Source: a virus (Duplodnaviria > Caudoviricetes). Taken from it: a stretch of DNA of 61,194 nt. The notes beneath the pieces are model-generated. The model searched no databases and had not been told where the DNA came from. It saw only the letters and a program-made list of their open reading frames with translations. The position numbers and the translations under genes are program-made. Within the stretch, counting starts at the first letter, position 1. Each line of letters begins with the position of its first letter. Below, in pieces: positions 19,491 to 30,690 of this stretch. Where the stretch lies: positions 1 to 61,194 of the IMG/VR virus record IMGVR_UViG_3300025117_000072. One strand, written 5' to 3'.

Positions 19491-19566
19491 TGGAGCCGCA
19501 CGTAGGAATCGAACCCACAACCCGAGGTTTACAAAACCCCCGCTCTGCCAGTTGAGCTAGTGCGAC
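19491..19566 (-). tRNA. tRNA-Thr(UGU)
   Basis: Acceptor GTCGCAC/GTGCGGC, D-arm TAGCTCAACTGGCAGAGC, anticodon loop TTTGTAA, GTTCGATTC T-loop, encoded CCA. Confidence 0.95.
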
Positions 19567-20355: not shown

Positions 20356-20781
20356 TCAACCATCTGTCCCACCCTTGCCCAGTTTGCCAAGGATGTCCTC
20401 AAGGGTCTCAGCCGTGACTCCAACCTCAGAACGGGTTGTGTATCCGAAATCACTAGACAATACCAGTCCGGCGATCTTGGGTTCGAGGGCTCCGATCATC
20501 GCCACAGACACGGTGGATTCCTTGACTCTGGCCCTCGCACGTGAAATGATGCCGCAAAATTCCGGCCGTTTTCCGTACTCCTCCAGCGTATCTTCACTGA
20601 TCCGTAGGTGCAGACACAGACCGCATAGGGTTGGAGGAGTGGGGACTTCCATCCTGACAATATCACCTTTGGATACCACTTGCTTTATGAGAATCCGGCT
20701 TTCGCATTTTGCAAAATACTCCTCAACTGCCTGCTCCAGTGCTTCCGGGTCGGTCCAGAGTGGGGGTCTTCCTGCTGGCAT
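20356..20781 (-). CDS. terS: Terminase small subunit (P22 gp3-like)
   Basis: MPAGRPPLWTDPEALEQAVEEYF...PPTLCGLCLHL...TLEEYGKRPEF. Confidence 0.85.
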   Translation of the reverse strand: MPAGRPPLWTDPEALEQAVEEYFAKCESRILIKQVVSKGDIVRMEVPTPPTLCGLCLHLRISEDTLEEYGKRPEFCGIISRARARVKESTVSVAMIGALEPKIAGLVLSSDFGYTTRSEVGVTAETLEDILGKLGKGGTDG

Positions 20782-20851
20782 TATCGAACCTCTGTTTGCC
20801 TCTTTCCGTGGTCCTCCTGGACGCGTGGGTAAAACAGGAGGAGAGAGCTGG

Positions 20852-21325
20852 TTAGTGTTTGGCCTTGCTTGCCTCATCAAACTCAGCCCGATACATCGGA
20901 TCAGTATCGTATCTGAGCCGGTCCAGAGAGGAGAAATCCTGTGTATTAGTTAAATCAGTATTAGTAGTGTCCAGAAATCCGTATTCAGTTTTCTGGATTG
21001 TGGTCAATGGGTTTTCATGAACTAAGTGTTCATGCTTGATATACTTACCCTTTTCGTTTCTGGACGAAATAAGCTCTATGTATCCGGCAGTCGCCAACTC
21101 TTTCAAAGCCGACCTTGTGGCTGATATTCCATCAGCCTTGCGCCTTGCGAGGTCAACGGCGTATATCTGCCAGTCATCAGGTAGAGACAGGATGTAAGCT
21201 AGTAGACCGGTTGCCTTCCAGGTTAGCCGCTTGTCCTGCACTGCTGTCTTGGCAATCTGCGCGTATGGGTTTTCTTTGTTCTTCGCTTTGCGAATGATCG
21301 TTTTTGGATTCATTTGCTCCCCCAA
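20852..21325 (-). CDS. Winged-HTH protein resembling the N-terminus of phage replication initiators
   Basis: NPYAQIAKTAVQDKRLTWKATGLLAYILSLPDDWQI...SALKELATAGYI. Confidence 0.7.
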   Translation of the reverse strand: MGEQMNPKTIIRKAKNKENPYAQIAKTAVQDKRLTWKATGLLAYILSLPDDWQIYAVDLARRKADGISATRSALKELATAGYIELISSRNEKGKYIKHEHLVHENPLTTIQKTEYGFLDTTNTDLTNTQDFSSLDRLRYDTDPMYRAEFDEASKAKH

Positions 21326-21597
21326 ATGATAAGGGCCAGCCCGAAGCAGGGGAGTGCCCCGGAACTGGCCCTGGAATCACATCCTGACACTTGGCCTAGC
21401 ATCAGGAGTGCTTGACTACTTGGTCCTTATCCTCTCTCTTGCGATACCTCGTCACATATCGCAATATCCCCAGTGCAGGAGGATCATTATTGGAGCGCTG
21501 CCGGTTATTGCTCAGATGATATCGGGCGTACTCCATGTCATCTCGTACTAAGAGGGGATGTTTTGGCTGTTTGATGATCTGCATAGGCTCCAGACGC

Positions 21598-21628
21598 AAA
21601 AGCCCCGGCTCCTTTGGGAGTCGAGGCT
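21598..21628 (-). terminator. Putative terminator hairpin
   Basis: AGCCTCGACTCCC-AAA-GGAGCCGGGGCT-TTT. Confidence 0.45.
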
Positions 21629-22031
21629 GAGATGGAAATTTCTGGAGCTTATACTATCAGACTGATTCCAGATGTCAACATTTTTCTTGAATCACCTTTA
21701 TCTGTCTGATTTACCAAAGAATAAAAAATATGAAAATCCGATTCTATCTTCTGCCTATCTTGATATAAGGTATTGTCTCCTGCTTGTTTACACCCTACTG
21801 TAACCTGATTGTTTCACCGCAATTTGTCCTTATCTCACTATTCTTACTTGATATTCCATGATTATATCGTTTTGCATGTCAACTCTCAAGTTACATTGGC
21901 ATACTTTTTGATGCCATTCCTGAAATCACCATTTTTACTTATGTACTTGATGTTATTGAGACAATACGATTCCGTAATTATTGGCATATTGATTGCAATA
22001 TTTACGGGCAAATACGAAGGGGAGGGACAAC

Positions 22032-22250
22032 ATGAAAGCAGAATTCGGGAAGTTCGGTCCGGCACACGATTACAGAGGAGCCTTTGCCAATAAGCCAGAC
22101 GGAACAATAGTACAAATTGCTGATATCTACTACAAAGACCACGGTTGCACCGGCTTTGTTGCTAGACTCCGCCGCAATGATGGTACAGACGCGGGGGAAT
22201 GCTATTTGAGGCAGCTGGAAATAATGAAGATAACCTACAATAACGCCTAA
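22032..22250 (+). CDS. Hypothetical protein, first gene of plus-strand cassette
   Basis: GGAGGG RBS after an AT-rich promoter region. Confidence 0.6.
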   Translation: MKAEFGKFGPAHDYRGAFANKPDGTIVQIADIYYKDHGCTGFVARLRRNDGTDAGECYLRQLEIMKITYNNA

Positions 22251-22266
22251 CCCACACAACCGCCCG

Positions 22267-22488
22267 ATGGGCATGGAGGGGAAAATGGTAAAGCACAGAA
22301 CGGAAATCCAAGACAGACTTACCGGGGAAATTGTATATCGCTCGCGCTATTACCCTACCTACAACCAAGCTGCCGACGCTGCGGAGCGAGCCTGTAAGAG
22401 GCAATGGCGCGGGGATCGCTATCGGATTAAAGAGGGCGAGAGCATCATCGTTAATGACAAATTGTATACCGAGGCTGACAACGCTTAA
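22267..22488 (+). CDS. Hypothetical protein
   Basis: ORF in plus-strand cassette; likely start at MVKHR after GGAGGGG. Confidence 0.55.
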   Translation: MGMEGKMVKHRTEIQDRLTGEIVYRSRYYPTYNQAADAAERACKRQWRGDRYRIKEGESIIVNDKLYTEADNA

Positions 22489-22565
22489 CCCTATCCCCAC
22501 TCCCGACTCCATGAGCCGGGACACGGGAGCGGAGTTGGAGCAAACCACTAAATCAGGAAAGGGGA

Positions 22566-22958
22566 ATGATTATGAATAAAAAAGACCGCATGAGAGAGCA
22601 GATTTTGCAGCACGGATTCAAGCTCAAGAGAATCTTCATCGTGGGCGACCATATCGGCCCGGTTGAACTCGCAAAGAAAGTGCATCGTCTTGAAGCCAAA
22701 GCGCACAGGATTGCTGAGGATTATTGCAATGGGATTATTGACAACGAATTCGAGAGTGACCGGCAAGAACACAGCGTCATGAAATCCCTTGACAAGATCT
22801 TGAACTACAAGGCTCAAGGAATCCCGGTTTTCTTCAATGGCGATCCCCGTGGATACGCTCTCAAGATCAATGATGCCTATGTGAAAGAGCACAACCTGGA
22901 CATCCATCGGGATTGGGGTGGATACGGAATCCTGTCCCCCGAGTTTAACGGCAACTAG
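22566..22958 (+). CDS. Conserved phage hypothetical protein
   Basis: HRIAEDYCNG...NGDPRGYALKI; AAGGGG RBS. Confidence 0.7.
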   Translation: MIMNKKDRMREQILQHGFKLKRIFIVGDHIGPVELAKKVHRLEAKAHRIAEDYCNGIIDNEFESDRQEHSVMKSLDKILNYKAQGIPVFFNGDPRGYALKINDAYVKEHNLDIHRDWGGYGILSPEFNGN

Positions 22959-23009
22959 GTCGAAACCGGCTCCGGCCGGTCCTGGGGTTTTGCCCCGGCT
23001 GATGAGACC
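22958..23009 (+). ncRNA. Hammerhead ribozyme, type II topology
   Basis: GGTC-GAAA-CCGGC(TCCG)GCCGG-TC^-CTGGGG(TTTTG)CCCCGG-CTGATGA-GACC; full catalytic core and three stems. Confidence 0.88.
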
Positions 23010-23026
23010 AAAAGGAGGAAAGGAAA

Positions 23027-23203
23027 ATGCCCACCCTAAGAATGGAGCAAATCAAAATGAGCGGAGACCGGAAAACCACAATCCAGTTACCCGAGGAACT
23101 GCGTAGATGGCTCAAAACCCACGCAGCGCAGACCGACACCACAATGGCCGAAATCATCATCCGGGTACTCAGGGAGTACCAGGCGCAGGAAGGGAGGAAG
23201 TAA
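23027..23203 (+). CDS. Ribbon-helix-helix (CopG/Arc-like) regulator (58 aa; not in the ORF track)
   Basis: KTTIQLPEELRRWLKTHAAQTDTTMAEIIIRVLREY; AGGAGG RBS. Confidence 0.75.
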   Translation: MPTLRMEQIKMSGDRKTTIQLPEELRRWLKTHAAQTDTTMAEIIIRVLREYQAQEGRK

Positions 23204-23204
23204 T

Positions 23205-23687
23205 ATGTGTTGCTGCATTAAGCCTACAAAGAACGGTGAACCTGGATACCTATGGAGCAGCGTAGGAATGGAAGGGATACACCCTGTAAATCCACCCGCC
23301 ATTGAAGACGGAGATACGGTCCTTTTCGATGAGCCGGGAAGATGCGGCGGCATTGATTCACACTGCCACCATTACCGTGTCATCAAGGGGAAATTTGGAG
23401 GATTGCAGTTGTTGGTACGGCATGGCGGTGGAGATGAGCGAATCCCCTACATCTCGAATGGTAAAGCGTTTACGGCTGCACTCGAAACCCTGGATTCTGA
23501 TGGTAGGTATTGGGTACTCAATGCAATGTATCACGCTCAGTCAAAGGCAAAACGAGAAGGCGTAGAGGCAGAAGGCAATAGATGGCGAAACGCGGCGGCG
23601 GAAAAGAGAATCAAAACGCGTAAGATTCCATCACAGGGAATTGTGAGAGTCTGGATGGAAGCGAAGGAAGGGAGGGAAGGGAGATGA
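23205..23687 (+). CDS. Hypothetical protein
   Basis: 160 aa, GGGAGG RBS. Confidence 0.65.
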   Translation: MCCCIKPTKNGEPGYLWSSVGMEGIHPVNPPAIEDGDTVLFDEPGRCGGIDSHCHHYRVIKGKFGGLQLLVRHGGGDERIPYISNGKAFTAALETLDSDGRYWVLNAMYHAQSKAKREGVEAEGNRWRNAAAEKRIKTRKIPSQGIVRVWMEAKEGREGR

Positions 23688-23983
23688 AGCATACACCGGG
23701 ACCATGGGAAGTATTGGATGGAGCGATTGTTTCTAAACAGGTAAACGCTTACGGTAATTTTATCGTTGTGAACTGCGAGCGCGAACGCACCGAAGAGGAT
23801 GCTGCCAATCTGGACCTGATCGCTGCCGCGCCTGAACTGGCCGAAATGGGTAGCCTCCTGCTCAGAACGGTTTGGGATACACTTCGGCATGGTTTGACGG
23901 ATGGACAAAGGGAATCACTTGAGGCCGTGGGAAAAGAGTTTGCCAGCATCTTAGCCAAGGCAGAAGGGAGGGAAGGCAAATAA
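23684..23983 (+). CDS. Phage hypothetical (HTPGPW...LIAAAP family)
   Basis: MKHTPGPW and ANLDLIAAAPEL motifs. Confidence 0.7.
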   Translation: MKHTPGPWEVLDGAIVSKQVNAYGNFIVVNCERERTEEDAANLDLIAAAPELAEMGSLLLRTVWDTLRHGLTDGQRESLEAVGKEFASILAKAEGREGK

Positions 23984-24004
23984 CCGCCCTCCACCTAAAC
24001 TATC

Positions 24005-24028
24005 AACCCGGTTTGCGCCGGGTTTTTT
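24005..24028 (+). terminator. Rho-independent terminator of plus-strand cassette
   Basis: AACCCGG-TTTGCG-CCGGGTT-TTTT. Confidence 0.8.
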
Positions 24029-24124
24029 ATTGCCCAAATACCAAAAAGCCTGTAGCTCGCTGTTTTCAATACCCACCCCTAGACAAAACAGACACTTACG
24101 GTTTTCCCGTTTTCGTGGGGAATA

Positions 24125-24553
24125 CTACGCCTCACGCACACCCCCTATCTGTAGTGTGGCGATACCGTCCCTTGTGTCGGTTGGGCACGTTTCACCACTC
24201 TCCTTTGTGCTTTTTTCCCACTCCCGCGCCATCCTCCATTTCCGGCCCGCCTGCTTGAGATCTTGGCAAACGCTCATCGGCATTCTGGCTATGCCCGCCT
24301 GGAGCCAGTCTAGTACCGCCTCTGGGTCGTGGAACAACTGATTGATATTGGCCGACCGTACCGCCTGCCTCTCGCTGCTTCCGATATCCAGGCTGCCGAG
24401 TATGGCACCGGGGTCCAGGCTGCGGGGAGTGCGGCCACTCAGCGCCCACTCTTCGACTGCTAAAATCCATGCACCCATGTTAAATGGGCACGTCCGCTCG
24501 TTGTGCTCGTAGCATCTCAGCCGTGGATTCCAGGGACATTTAATCCATTTCAA
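24125..24553 (-). CDS. Hypothetical protein at the end of the replication operon
   Basis: Overlaps stop of RuvC-like gene; position often held by late regulators. Confidence 0.45.
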   Translation of the reverse strand: MKWIKCPWNPRLRCYEHNERTCPFNMGAWILAVEEWALSGRTPRSLDPGAILGSLDIGSSERQAVRSANINQLFHDPEAVLDWLQAGIARMPMSVCQDLKQAGRKWRMAREWEKSTKESGETCPTDTRDGIATLQIGGVREA

Positions 24554-25050
24554 TGTTGGCCTCCATTATGTTGGTCGTACCACGTCACAGCGAGAGCAAG
24601 AGCAGCCCAAATGTCTTTTGATACTCCATACAGAATACCCGGATTTGCTTTCTTCCCCGGCTCACCAAACCGGTCGATCAGCGCAGCCCGAATATTGGAA
24701 TCCTTGGCCCTCATGGAATGGCAGAGATACATCTTGACATCCTTGCGGGGCATCCGATCAAAAAAGCCCTGATTCCCCCATGCCTCACAAAACCGACCAG
24801 ACCAGAAAACCGTATCGAATATGGAGTCGGATACAGCCATGCCGTAGGATTTGATCTGCTCAATAATACAGACATTGGCACCAGTGTCTTCCGCATGTCG
24901 GCAGACAGTAAGAACAGCGTCATTGCTCAGTTTTGCCTTACCGATAATCTCTTTCCCGTCCCAAATGACAAACGCCGATTCAACCGGCCCTGGATCTATT
25001 GCGAGTACGTTCATTTTCCCCTCCTGCTTTGTCACGTCGGCTTCGTTCAT
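24550..25050 (-). CDS. RuvC-like Holliday junction resolvase
   Basis: VLAIDPG, IIEQ, DIWAALALA acidic triad. Confidence 0.8.
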   Translation of the reverse strand: MNEADVTKQEGKMNVLAIDPGPVESAFVIWDGKEIIGKAKLSNDAVLTVCRHAEDTGANVCIIEQIKSYGMAVSDSIFDTVFWSGRFCEAWGNQGFFDRMPRKDVKMYLCHSMRAKDSNIRAALIDRFGEPGKKANPGILYGVSKDIWAALALAVTWYDQHNGGQH

Positions 25051-25790
25051 TGCTCAATCCTCTTCTCGAGTAGTGAATAGAATTTCTCCCTCTTCATGAC
25101 CCATGAGATTTGCGCTTTCCATCCCCGGTCGTTCTCCCCTAGATAAAATGGGAGTTGGCCGATCTTTGTGAAAAACTTTCTCCACCATTCCAAGTCCTGC
25201 CGTTTTTCATCCTCATGCCATCGCGCTTTACATTGGACATACCACGCCTCATTCTTCGGATGAGGTCTTGGAAGCATCGGTAGAATCTCAATCCAAAGCT
25301 CACGAATTTTCGAATAGGGAATAGCGCCATTTTTGCTTTCGGCTATTTCAGAACTTTGGGGGGATATAGGGGGTAATAAAGAAGAAGAAGATGAAGAGCT
25401 ACCTTCCGGCTGTAGCGTGGGCTTAGCCGTGGCTATAGCCGTGGCTATAGTTTTTCCCCACCTTTGTTCTGCCCTCCTTTTACCTTTTTGTCTTTGCTTT
25501 TCACGGTATTGCCTCTGTTTTTCCCGTGTCTCTTCAAGCCTCAAATTTATCAATCCTGTGCCGTCTTCCGTATGCACGAATTTGCTGCTCACCTGTTGCC
25601 AGCATTTTGAGAACATACGGTATTCACATCCCCCGATCCTTGCGAGCCTTAATTTATCGGTTGGAAGAGGTCCATTTGCCCACTCAGAATAGAGCAGTCG
25701 GCAGTACAAACCCATCTCGGCAAGTGTCCATGATGCCGTGTCAACCAAGAACTCACCTGCATAAAGTTGGAATGCTGGCGCTTCGCTCAT
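25047..25790 (-). CDS. YdaU/DUF1376-family replication initiator
   Basis: PAFQLYAGEFLVDT...EMGLYCRLL..W..GPLP; C-terminal FYLGENDRGWKA; internal iteron-like repeats. Confidence 0.82.
   Translation of the reverse strand: MSEAPAFQLYAGEFLVDTASWTLAEMGLYCRLLYSEWANGPLPTDKLRLARIGGCEYRMFSKCWQQVSSKFVHTEDGTGLINLRLEETREKQRQYREKQRQKGKRRAEQRWGKTIATAIATAKPTLQPEGSSSSSSSLLPPISPQSSEIAESKNGAIPYSKIRELWIEILPMLPRPHPKNEAWYVQCKARWHEDEKRQDLEWWRKFFTKIGQLPFYLGENDRGWKAQISWVMKREKFYSLLEKRIEQ
25413..25447. repeat. Iteron-like repeats (candidate origin) within initiator gene
   Basis: TAGCCGTGGCTA twice in tandem plus a degenerate copy. Confidence 0.45.
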
Positions 25791-27113
25791 CTATAATTCC
25801 TCATCATCTGTCGGCCTTAACGGTTGCTTTTCGACACTCCTGTCTGTGTCGTAAATCCGCTGCGTGAACCTCTCGAACTCGAGCATGGTCTTCCATCCCG
25901 CTTCGCCGTCTCGAGCCTTCAGACATTCAACTTCCATCCAAGGATCTTCTTTGTCCTTGCGGTAGAGGCTGAGGACCACATCGGCGTTCTGTTCTATGTC
26001 TCCGCTCTCCTTCAGGTCGCTGAGGATCGGGCGCTTATTATTTCTCTCCTCCACTTTTCTCGAGAGTTGGCAGAGGACCACAACCGGGCAGCCGAGATCC
26101 TTTCCGAGATCGCATAGCCGTTCACTTGTAAATGAGAGTTCATGGTGTCGACTCTGCGTCCGCTTCCTAGTTGTGGTCTTCTGGAGGTGGTCGACCATGA
26201 TCATAGATATCGGCCCATTCATGGCCACCGTTTCCGCCTTGGAATAGAGTATTTCGATGGTTTTGTATTTCGGGGAGTCTAATATCATTGGGTTTTTCTT
26301 GGATAGACGATCAAAAGTCTCGAGCAGGTCTGGCCACTGGCTGTTGTCGACAGTGCGGTTTCTGATCTTTGAGAGATAAATCTGTGAGTCCATCGCCACA
26401 CGCCGACGGCTTATTCTCTCGGCTGTCATCTCGAGAGAGAAAAACAGGGCAGTGCCGGGGTAGGATGTCGACACGTTCTCGAGGATGTTTAAGCCAAGGG
26501 CTGTTTTCCCGATAGATGGTCGGGCAGCGAGATATATCGTTGTTCCCGGCTCGAGGTGGTAGAGATACTTGTCCAGGTTTAAAAAGCCGGTCTTTGGTCC
26601 CTGTGGTGCATCCTCTTTCTCGAGGTGCCTTTGGATCTGATCCATGAGATCGTAGTTGCTGAGATGTTCCGGGGCCTGCCCGCTCTCGAGGGTGCGTATT
26701 CCCTCTTTGAGTGTCGACAGCGTATCCTCCAACGGTTCATGCACGGCAAACGCCTTATCCGCCGTCACCTGGCAGGCCGTGATGACCTGCCGCCTCTGCG
26801 AGTGCTCCCGGATGATTTCGGAGTGGGCTTTCCACCCGGCAGACGTGCTTACCGTATCGTGCAGTTCCCCTAGGTAGGGTATCCCTCCGACCGCTTCCAG
26901 TTTGCCGGATGCCCGAAGTGCAGCCTCAAGGGTGATGATGTCCATGCCCCTGCCGAGCGTCTGCATGGACCCCCAAATAATCTGATGCTTCTCAGGGTAA
27001 AAATCAGTCGGTACTAATTGTATTTGGCCTATGATTTCTGGCCGGATGAAGCAACCTGATAACAGTGCCTTTTCCGCTTCTAGGTCGTGGGGCAGCATCC
27101 TTACCTTTTCCAT
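25791..27113 (-). CDS. dnaB: Replicative DNA helicase
   Basis: LPHDLEAEKALL, AARPSIGKT, FSLEM, VDHLQ, QLSR, SDLKESGDIEQNAD. Confidence 0.95.
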   Translation of the reverse strand: MEKVRMLPHDLEAEKALLSGCFIRPEIIGQIQLVPTDFYPEKHQIIWGSMQTLGRGMDIITLEAALRASGKLEAVGGIPYLGELHDTVSTSAGWKAHSEIIREHSQRRQVITACQVTADKAFAVHEPLEDTLSTLKEGIRTLESGQAPEHLSNYDLMDQIQRHLEKEDAPQGPKTGFLNLDKYLYHLEPGTTIYLAARPSIGKTALGLNILENVSTSYPGTALFFSLEMTAERISRRRVAMDSQIYLSKIRNRTVDNSQWPDLLETFDRLSKKNPMILDSPKYKTIEILYSKAETVAMNGPISMIMVDHLQKTTTRKRTQSRHHELSFTSERLCDLGKDLGCPVVVLCQLSRKVEERNNKRPILSDLKESGDIEQNADVVLSLYRKDKEDPWMEVECLKARDGEAGWKTMLEFERFTQRIYDTDRSVEKQPLRPTDDEEL

Positions 27114-29492: not shown

Positions 29493-30605
29493 TCAAGAAC
29501 CTATAGACCCCCCGTTGCTGGTTCGTTTCTGCTTTACCAGTTGCTTCAGGTTATCGACGTTCACTCCCTCGTATCTCCTGGTATGGCGCAATGTGGTGTG
29601 TCCCGCAGCCTTGGAAGCAAGCAAGAGCTGGTCGCTGTGCTGTGTAATGAAGCTGTGTTTCGTGCCCTGGTAGAGAGTCACCTTGACGGGGCACCCTGCC
29701 CTTTCTCGGGCTTCATTCCAGGTGGTAGAAATGTGGCCGGTATAGGGAAGTCCCCCCTTGTCGATGAAAACATACGGGCTCTTGAGCCTGTTCTTTTTGA
29801 CAGCCTGAAGGATCTCGGCAACCGGGTCCGTGATAGGCATGTACCGGACTCGCTTCGTCTTGGTGAACTCCTCCAAGCGGGTCCTTCTTCCCTTCGAGAA
29901 CTTCCTTTTGATGACGATGATTCCCTTGTCTTGGTGGACGCAGTTCCATTGGAGGGCCATGGCTTCTCCCGTCCTGACAGGCCATGCACACAGGAACCGG
30001 AATATCGGGCGGTCATGTTCGGGGATCTCCGAAATGATTTTTTCCTGCCAGTAGGGAGTGAGCCAGGGGACCTCTTTTTCGGGGATCTCTATCGTGGGGA
30101 AATGCGGGACGCTTATAACGTCCTCATAGTCAACGGCTGCATCGGCAAGAATGGTATGGAGAAAGTCGAGATGAACTTTCCGTGTGGCCGGCGCGAGCCG
30201 GGGAAGACTGGACAGGTAATCCTTGATGTGGGCCTGTTTTATGGACCTCATGTCCATAGTTCCAAAGAACTCTATCGCCCTTGCGACATACCGCTCCACG
30301 TCCACAAGGGACCCCTTTGCATACCGGCTGCCCTTGACGACATTCTGCCGCCACTTCTCCGCGTAGGTGCCGAAAAGGAGCTCATTCTGAGCGTAGCCAA
30401 ACCATTTGCGGGGATTGAACCCCTTGCCTAGCTTTTCCAGGTCTCCGTTGATCAGGTTCGTGATCCGGTCGGCCCTTCCCCTGGAATCGATCGGTGTTCC
30501 ATCATCGCACCATGTACGGGTCCACTTCTTCCCCTGGTAGTACAGGTAAACGACAAAGCGCGGCTCCCCTGCATCTTGTCTCTGGTAGTATCTGCACCGT
30601 GACAT
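29493..30605 (-). CDS. int: Tyrosine recombinase/integrase
   Basis: PVRTGEAMALQW, TKTKR, LYQGTKHSF, AGHT...TRRY. Confidence 0.88.
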   Translation of the reverse strand: MSRCRYYQRQDAGEPRFVVYLYYQGKKWTRTWCDDGTPIDSRGRADRITNLINGDLEKLGKGFNPRKWFGYAQNELLFGTYAEKWRQNVVKGSRYAKGSLVDVERYVARAIEFFGTMDMRSIKQAHIKDYLSSLPRLAPATRKVHLDFLHTILADAAVDYEDVISVPHFPTIEIPEKEVPWLTPYWQEKIISEIPEHDRPIFRFLCAWPVRTGEAMALQWNCVHQDKGIIVIKRKFSKGRRTRLEEFTKTKRVRYMPITDPVAEILQAVKKNRLKSPYVFIDKGGLPYTGHISTTWNEARERAGCPVKVTLYQGTKHSFITQHSDQLLLASKAAGHTTLRHTRRYEGVNVDNLKQLVKQKRTSNGGSIGS

Positions 30606-30690
30606 AGGCTCCCCTCCCCTTTTTGGTATGAGGGCCATCTTACCACGTCTGCCTGTCAGTGGAAGGGGGGTCAAAGTAGGGTCTCCTGGG

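Follow-up and report, generated by a model that had tools for sequence, protein, structure and literature searches.

The window is a 61,194-base stretch of DNA that makes up a complete IMG/VR virus record (CheckV completeness 100%, with linear ends). The candidate hammerhead ribozyme lies in a plus-strand block of about 21.8-24.0 kb, set between two groups of minus-strand genes. On the packaging and structural side, these comprise the small terminase gene (20356-20880), an HTH/replication-initiator-like gene (20852-21325) and a tRNA gene (19494-19566, 55.4 bits in the Rfam scan); this phage-borne tRNA gene separates the small terminase gene from the structural genes. The replication side carries genes for a RusA-like resolvase (24550-25050), a DUF1376 protein (25047-25790), DnaB (25791-27113), a DNA methylase and an integrase (29493-30674), all likewise on the minus strand. 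Both GC and AT skew turn positive at 22-24 kb, in agreement with plus-strand coding.

Four plus-strand open reading frames surround the candidate ribozyme. Upstream is P0001 (22566..22958, 130 aa), which belongs to no Pfam, PHROG or NCBIfam family. Downstream are P0002 (23027..23203, 58 aa), P0003 (23205..23687, 160 aa, no family), which starts 1 nt past the P0002 stop codon, and a final ORF (23684..23983) that matches phrog_1273, of unknown function. Neither P0001 nor P0003 gave an NCBIfam match or a usable ESM Atlas match. P0002 had been called a ribbon-helix-helix (RHH) regulator in a sequence-only reading of this DNA, an assignment that we keep as tentative: the protein matches a PHROG of Arc-like repressors with an E value of 2.8e-5, but the Pfam RHH families fall below the cut-off and the best hits of a PDB sequence search (E 0.34-0.47) are not significant. 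The N terminus of P0003 is rich in cysteine (MCCC...), and the tight spacing of P0002 and P0003 resembles that of an antitoxin-toxin or regulator-effector pair; nothing supports either assignment. A hairpin followed by a T run at 24005..24034 on the plus strand, identified by its match to the terminator consensus only, probably marks the end of the plus-strand transcript. Given the gene context, the skew flip and this terminator-like site after the last plus-strand ORF, "accessory operon of a temperate phage" is a fair label for the block. A blastn search of 21300-24100 against 50,697 phage records returned no match to a named phage, and contigs assembled from three DNA runs are identical to the window over the locus, with neither variants nor ends. 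A fourth run, labelled metatranscriptomic but probably of DNA, contributed no contig here, and no RNA run was found that covers 22300-23700.

The whole candidate ribozyme spans 22957..23010 on the plus strand, 54 nt when the conserved flanking A22957 and A23010 are included, and shares two bases with the P0001 stop codon TAG (22956-22958). Stem II is formed by GGUC (22958..22961) and GACC (23006..23009), which pair as G22958-C23009, G22959-C23008, U22960-A23007 and C22961-G23006. Its 5' strand leads into the core nucleotides G12, A13 and A14 (22962..22964), and these into the stem III hairpin (22965..22980), in which the A22965-U22980 pair (A15.1-U16.1) is followed by five G-C pairs (CCGGC/GCCGG) and a UCCG loop (22971-22974). 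C17 follows at 22981, as placed by the alignments to both Rfam and the model R1 described below, with scission predicted between C22981 and C22982. The cleavage triplet is GUC (G22979, U22980, C22981), so that nucleotide 17 is not G, as the hammerhead requires. The stem I hairpin (22982..22998) comprises six pairs from C22982-G22998 to G22987-C22993, plus U22988.G22992, and is capped by the loop UUU. The core then resumes with CUGAUGA (C3 to A9, 22999..23005). Stems I, II and III thus measure 7, 4 and 6 bp; all 17 pairs are intact, the 13 core positions show no deviation, and the pairs that adjoin the core are canonical (A22965-U22980; G23006-C22961, or G10.1-C11.1; C22982-G22998, or N1.1-N2.1). 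With stem II open and stems I and III capped, the topology is type II. The Shine-Dalgarno sequence AGGAGG (23013..23018) lies 8 nt before the P0002 ATG at 23027, and the ribozyme ends (23009) 3 nt before it.

Direct reading, the Rfam alignment and the minimum-free-energy (MFE) fold all bear out the complete core (CUGAUGA, GAA), the GUC triplet, the three stems and the type II topology described in the sequence-only reading. Its placement of the motif at 22958-23009, from the last base of the P0001 stop codon to just before AGGAGG, and of the predicted cut after C22981 is likewise correct on direct reading. Folded as an isolated 52-nt RNA, the motif adopts exactly the three-way junction as its MFE structure (-25.5 kcal/mol, z -2.4). 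In a 201-nt context (22880-23080), the MFE fold retains hairpins I and III and swaps stem II for other pairings, so that misfolding of the ribozyme within the long mRNA is possible.

The motif is far beyond chance. In a search of both strands with a relaxed descriptor covering all three hammerhead topologies, 22958-23009 on the plus strand is the sole match in the 61-kb record, and 300 dinucleotide-preserving shuffles of the window yielded no type II match (with a looser stem II rule, four type I and three type III matches appeared). A second hammerhead, which could release an RNA as a circle or an excised piece, was sought in the window with the descriptors of all three types and with unfiltered R1 searches; neither revealed one.

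A search of viral contigs with the pattern GTCGAAAC..GTC..CTGATGAGAC, which fixes the core and this stem II but allows any stems I and III and requires no pairing, matched at least 120 viral stretches; since the pattern was derived from the window site itself, about 25 core and stem II positions agree by selection. Many contigs carry several copies, up to seven in L078. Among the matches listed, both hairpin stems reach at least 5 bp in 127 of the 147 matches with enough flanking sequence, and the 144 distinct copies separate cleanly into two architectures. In the first, a Watson-Crick run of at least 4, the pseudoknot reported for type II by Perreault et al. (PMC3088659), links a long loop I to the 3' tail in 86 of 110 copies among the matches listed. 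The second is a sub-class with a 4-bp stem II and a 17-nt stem I hairpin, to which the window belongs; among the matches listed, such a run occurs in 0 of its 34 copies, the window included. Representative prokaryote genomes of many phyla contain the sub-class pattern as well, in 112 stretches. The window ribozyme is a member of an abundant phage and prophage hammerhead class.

Several class members lie in arrays. In L078 (8402-11317, plus strand), seven pattern hammerheads occur within 3 kb, each before a small ORF, among them genes for a RusA-like resolvase and an anti-restriction protein, and four of the seven pass the Rfam threshold. Rfam also detects further type II hammerheads of 57-67 bits at L056:2941-3009(-), L108:1638-1707(+), L123:4498-4567(+) and L128:1169-1238(+), at distances of a few hundred bases from copies that match the pattern, which indicates arrays with differing stem II sequences. 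In seven hammerheads (L054, L070, L079, two copies in L107, L115 and L148), the tail CAUCAG directly follows stem II. It is complementary to the core CUGAUG, and a hairpin CUGAUG-AGAC-CAUCAG could compete with the core or lock it after cleavage.

The membership of the sub-class bears on the score that the window copy receives from Rfam. RF02276 (Hammerhead_II) aligns to the site over model positions 1-66 with 24.1 bits, against a gathering threshold of 37 (E values of 0.0073 when 271 nt were searched and 3.9e-4 in another search), and the whole-window Rfam scans, including a permissive one, do not list the hammerhead. They report no other ribozyme in the window; the tRNA alone reaches threshold, and the sub-threshold matches are noise. 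The sequence-only reading had proposed an Infernal comparison with the Rfam hammerhead models as a check and had called the motif a textbook hammerhead. The full-length alignment and the complete core and stems uphold that description of the structure, whereas the sub-threshold score means that it overstated the database match. We then compared the site with R1, a covariance model built from 28 viral sub-class copies with the window left out, which scores it at 68.9 bits (E 3.5e-20); the next best site in the window reaches 17.3 bits. When 17 viral loci were scanned at the Rfam gathering threshold, 0 of 14 sub-class copies (11 loci) were reported, as opposed to 7 of 15 pseudoknot-type copies and four further hammerheads (6 loci). 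The low score of the window copy is, on this comparison, typical of the sub-class and not the sign of a defective copy. With none of the 14 tested copies above the Hammerhead_II threshold, routine annotation probably misses many members of the sub-class.

Covariation was assessed in an alignment of 29 of the 33 distinct sub-class sequences; L038, L042, L079 and L087, which have long stem III inserts, were left out for compactness. The hammerhead structure pairs in 98.8% of cells, compared with 28-49% when the partners are slid, a figure in which stem II and the core are uninformative because the pattern fixes them. For stems I and III, 97.5-99.4% of cells pair, where the length of stem I was a selection criterion and stem III was unselected. 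Across 10 of the 17 pairs, 130 cells are changed on both sides, and 0 of 500 shuffles reach the observed covariation score. Among orthologous copies that precede one 57-aa gene, stem I carries a compensatory change from A-U to G-C (L272, L273, L278 and L279 versus L280). L280 has the same ribozyme and the same downstream 57-aa gene as the other four copies, but what lies upstream differs; this suggests a ribozyme that travels as a 5' leader of its downstream gene.

Most type II hammerheads have a pseudoknot of at least 4 bp between loop I and the 3' tail. In the window, U22988-U22991 could pair with A23010-A23013, and five pairs could form if G22992-C23009 replaces the last pair of stem II. 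For the sub-class, however, this pseudoknot between a loop I triplet and the 3' tail is unsupported, as the corresponding columns pair in 25% of cells and a run of at least 4 is present in 0 of 34 copies among the matches listed. A different set of positions is conserved instead. Among the matches listed, an A precedes GGUC in 34 of 34 sub-class copies, a purine follows GACC in 32 of 34, and a U opens loop I in 34 of 34; the copies had not been selected for any of the three. The equivalents in the window are A22957 and A23010, which form an R:A opposition where stem II opens, and U22988, in the loop UUUUG. Classical hammerheads are described as carrying UNmYN and RNnA loop motifs joined by a reverse-Hoogsteen U:A contact (Dufour et al. 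2009, PMC2632901), and the window has both features of this loop 1-loop 2 motif, the 5' U of loop 1 and the R:A at the end of helix II. From the match of the three unselected positions to these features, we infer that the sub-class may represent the classical hammerhead opened at loop 2. A contact between U22988 and A22957 (opposite A23010), rather than the pseudoknot, would then probably aid fast folding at cellular Mg2+. The conserved A of the sub-class is, in the window, the middle base of the P0001 UAG.

The arrangement of stop codon, ribozyme, ribosome binding site (RBS) and small gene is the layout of most class members. We counted it in the 131 distinct members with enough flank among the matches listed and at 655 random same-strand positions. 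An upstream ORF of at least 60 aa ends within 30 nt of the ribozyme (mode -2 to +2 nt) in 105 of these 131 members and at 57 of the 655 random positions, and an RBS with the start of an ORF of at least 40 aa lies within 40 nt downstream in 97 of 131 and 59 of 655, respectively. Both features occur together in 77 of the 131 and at 3 of the 655. The downstream ORFs are small (median 86 aa among the matches listed), and 74 of 100 of them, with that of the window left out, match no PHROG at E <=1e-5. The PHROGs that can be named among the matches listed are mixed: SSB (three), ATPase (three), RusA-like, anti-restriction, methyltransferase, RecE-like and others. No gene family, RHH included, is enriched among these 100 downstream ORFs. 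Such a mixture agrees with the report on prophage hammerheads, where the identities of the flanked genes "are not constant" (PMC3088659).

Homologues of P0001 with 40-73% identity occur in 36 viral loci (L002-L037), each as a lone mosaic gene among unrelated neighbours; apart from an HTH gene in L002, P0001 is all that these loci have in common with the block. No hammerhead lies behind the homologue in any of the 36 (regular-expression search, with L002 and L003 read directly). As judged from these loci, the ribozyme is not conserved with P0001. For P0002 and P0003, no relatives were confirmed in the viral contigs.

Taken together, these observations make it very likely that the motif is a genuine type II hammerhead in the plus-strand accessory mRNA of a temperate phage, which would cut itself between C22981 and C22982 and turn one transcript into two. 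A functional ribozyme is the best-supported reading because the stems covary, an independent class model recovers the site with 68.9 bits, and the stop/ribozyme/RBS layout recurs in most members. In the proposed mechanism, the 54-nt motif (22957-23010) would fold upon transcription, and self-scission would leave a 2',3'-cyclic phosphate on C22981 and a 5'-OH on C22982, a chemistry expected from the family. After the cut, the two fragments would be joined by the 4-bp stem II alone and, with this as their sole remaining link, should separate. On the upstream mRNA, the stop codon would then be followed by 23 nt that close with the G+C-rich hairpin of stem III and the cyclic phosphate. The downstream mRNA, carrying P0002, P0003 and the phrog_1273 gene, would have its 5'-OH at the very start of the stem I hairpin, and its Shine-Dalgarno sequence would follow after 31 nt. 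The predicted folds of the cut products place hairpin III at the new 3' end and hairpin I at the new 5' end, with the Shine-Dalgarno region of the 3' product largely open and weakly paired. One transcript would thus yield two RNAs whose stability and translation are uncoupled, and cutting of a polycistronic mRNA is the likely function. Terminal hairpins and a 5'-OH are expected to alter the access of exonucleases or RNase E, in a direction that depends on the host. Any stabilizing effect of a 5'-OH followed by a hairpin is host-dependent; in Bacillus, the 5'-OH product of glmS is a target of degradation by RNase J1.

The overlap with the P0001 stop codon suggests a further, rather doubtful elaboration of this mechanism. 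Because the A that would dock onto loop 1 is the middle base of the UAG, and because stop codons across the class fall within about 2 nt of the ribozyme start, a ribosome terminating on the UAG and the active fold might exclude each other. The level of upstream translation would then gate cleavage and so the release of a stabilized mRNA from which the Arc/RHH-like cassette can be translated, with the ribozyme acting as a portable 5' leader of that cassette. Such portability would explain why P0001 homologues lack the ribozyme and why L280 and L272 have both ribozyme and downstream gene in common and not the upstream one.

Three other accounts of the locus were weighed. The one that survives best, though we consider it unlikely, holds that the motif is a hammerhead by descent that persists as an idle relic of the downstream cassette, misfolded or held open by ribosomes at the UAG, so that the operon remains one RNA. 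The loss of stem II in the 201-nt fold is consistent with this, as are the stop codon that overlaps the ribozyme by two bases and the loop I triplet UUU, where sub-class loops usually contain an A; the window copy also has no close relatives in the viral contigs, the 50,697 phage records or the identical DNA-run contigs through which its conservation could be read. A relic, however, would be expected to decay, and all 13 core positions, the core-adjacent pairs and all 17 pairs are intact. The stop-codon overlap is a rule of the class and not an oddity, and a ribosome would merely delay folding, where a single fold suffices to cut.

A second account, which we regard as less probable still, grants cleavage and assigns it mainly to switching on downstream translation, by freeing the Shine-Dalgarno region GGAGGAAAGGA (23014-23024) from UCCUGUCCCCC (22930-22940) within P0001. 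The two segments do pair across the ribozyme in the MFE and centroid folds of 22880-23080, and the pairing is absent from the 3' product, in which the Shine-Dalgarno region is weakly paired. But this 201-nt fold is no better than those of shuffled sequences (z -0.53; 64 of 200 fold as well), ribosomes that translate P0001 would in any case open the pairing, and G-rich Shine-Dalgarno and C-rich stretches pair readily by chance. The third account, that there is no ribozyme and that the two stable, G+C-rich intergenic hairpins serve as a terminator, as a target of RNase III or RNase E or as an mRNA stabilizer, with core letters present by chance, can draw on the hairpins and the sub-threshold Rfam score but is highly improbable in view of the absence of type II matches in 300 shuffles, the lack of a terminator call at 22958-23009 (neither hairpin has a T run, and the plus-strand terminator-like site is at 24005-24034), an R1 score driven by core and structure, and a core that is invariant across the class with covarying stems.

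Read as a functional type II hammerhead, the locus is a good but ordinary example of a phage hammerhead and will not surprise specialists, since such elements, and the proposal that they cut phage polycistronic RNA, have been in print since 2011 (PMC3088659). What the present analysis adds is a description of the sub-class, the finding that Rfam detects it poorly and the close overlap with the stop codon; the sub-class itself may already stand in the supplements of PMC3088659 or PMC8782182. It is common, with 34 distinct copies among the matches listed in viral contigs and occurrences in 112 stretches of representative prokaryote genomes. What the thousands of hammerheads in bacteria and phages do biologically has yet to be settled, and the window offers a clean minimal case, with one ribozyme in one operon and with the stop codon before it and the RBS after it both defined, that is suited to testing whether cleavage changes mRNA stability or translation.

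Hammerheads of phages and prophages, and a role for them in the cutting of phage polycistronic RNA, were described by Perreault et al. in 2011 (PMC3088659), who report that prophage hammerheads cut polycistronic RNAs of about 2 kb in vitro and in E. coli. The window copy resembles the prophage hammerheads that they describe in Agrobacterium tumefaciens, Azorhizobium caulinodans and Clostridium scindens, which are of type II or mixed type and lie near small hypothetical, DNA-binding and phage genes. It is also like loci 1-3 of Desulfovibrio vulgaris, found by cyPhyRNA-seq (PMC8782182), where three type II hammerheads near phage-like genes are reported to cleave. The tested prophage and D. vulgaris copies cleave in vitro and/or in vivo, and we liken the window copy, known from its sequence alone, to them by their published descriptions. 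Like the type I and III hammerheads of sTRSV, Schistosoma and CChMVd (PMC2632901), it begins loop 1 with a 5' U and closes a 4-bp helix II with an R:A opposition (A23010:A22957); unlike them, it has no loop at "loop 2", where the mRNA enters and leaves the ribozyme. The pseudoknot between loop I and the 3' tail is described for the majority of type II members, not all (PMC3088659), and most type II members differ in this respect from the sub-class of the window, in which a run of at least 4 bp is found in 0 of 34 copies compared with 86 of 110 among the matches listed. The window copy also departs from the RF02276 type II hammerheads in its score (24.1 bits, gathering 37), its 4-bp stem II and its short, U-closed loop I, and from the type II arrays that flank genes in being a single copy in its genome. 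With the type II hammerheads of RF02276 and PMC3088659 it nevertheless shares the same core, the same permutation and the same intergenic setting in the polycistronic units of phages and prophages.
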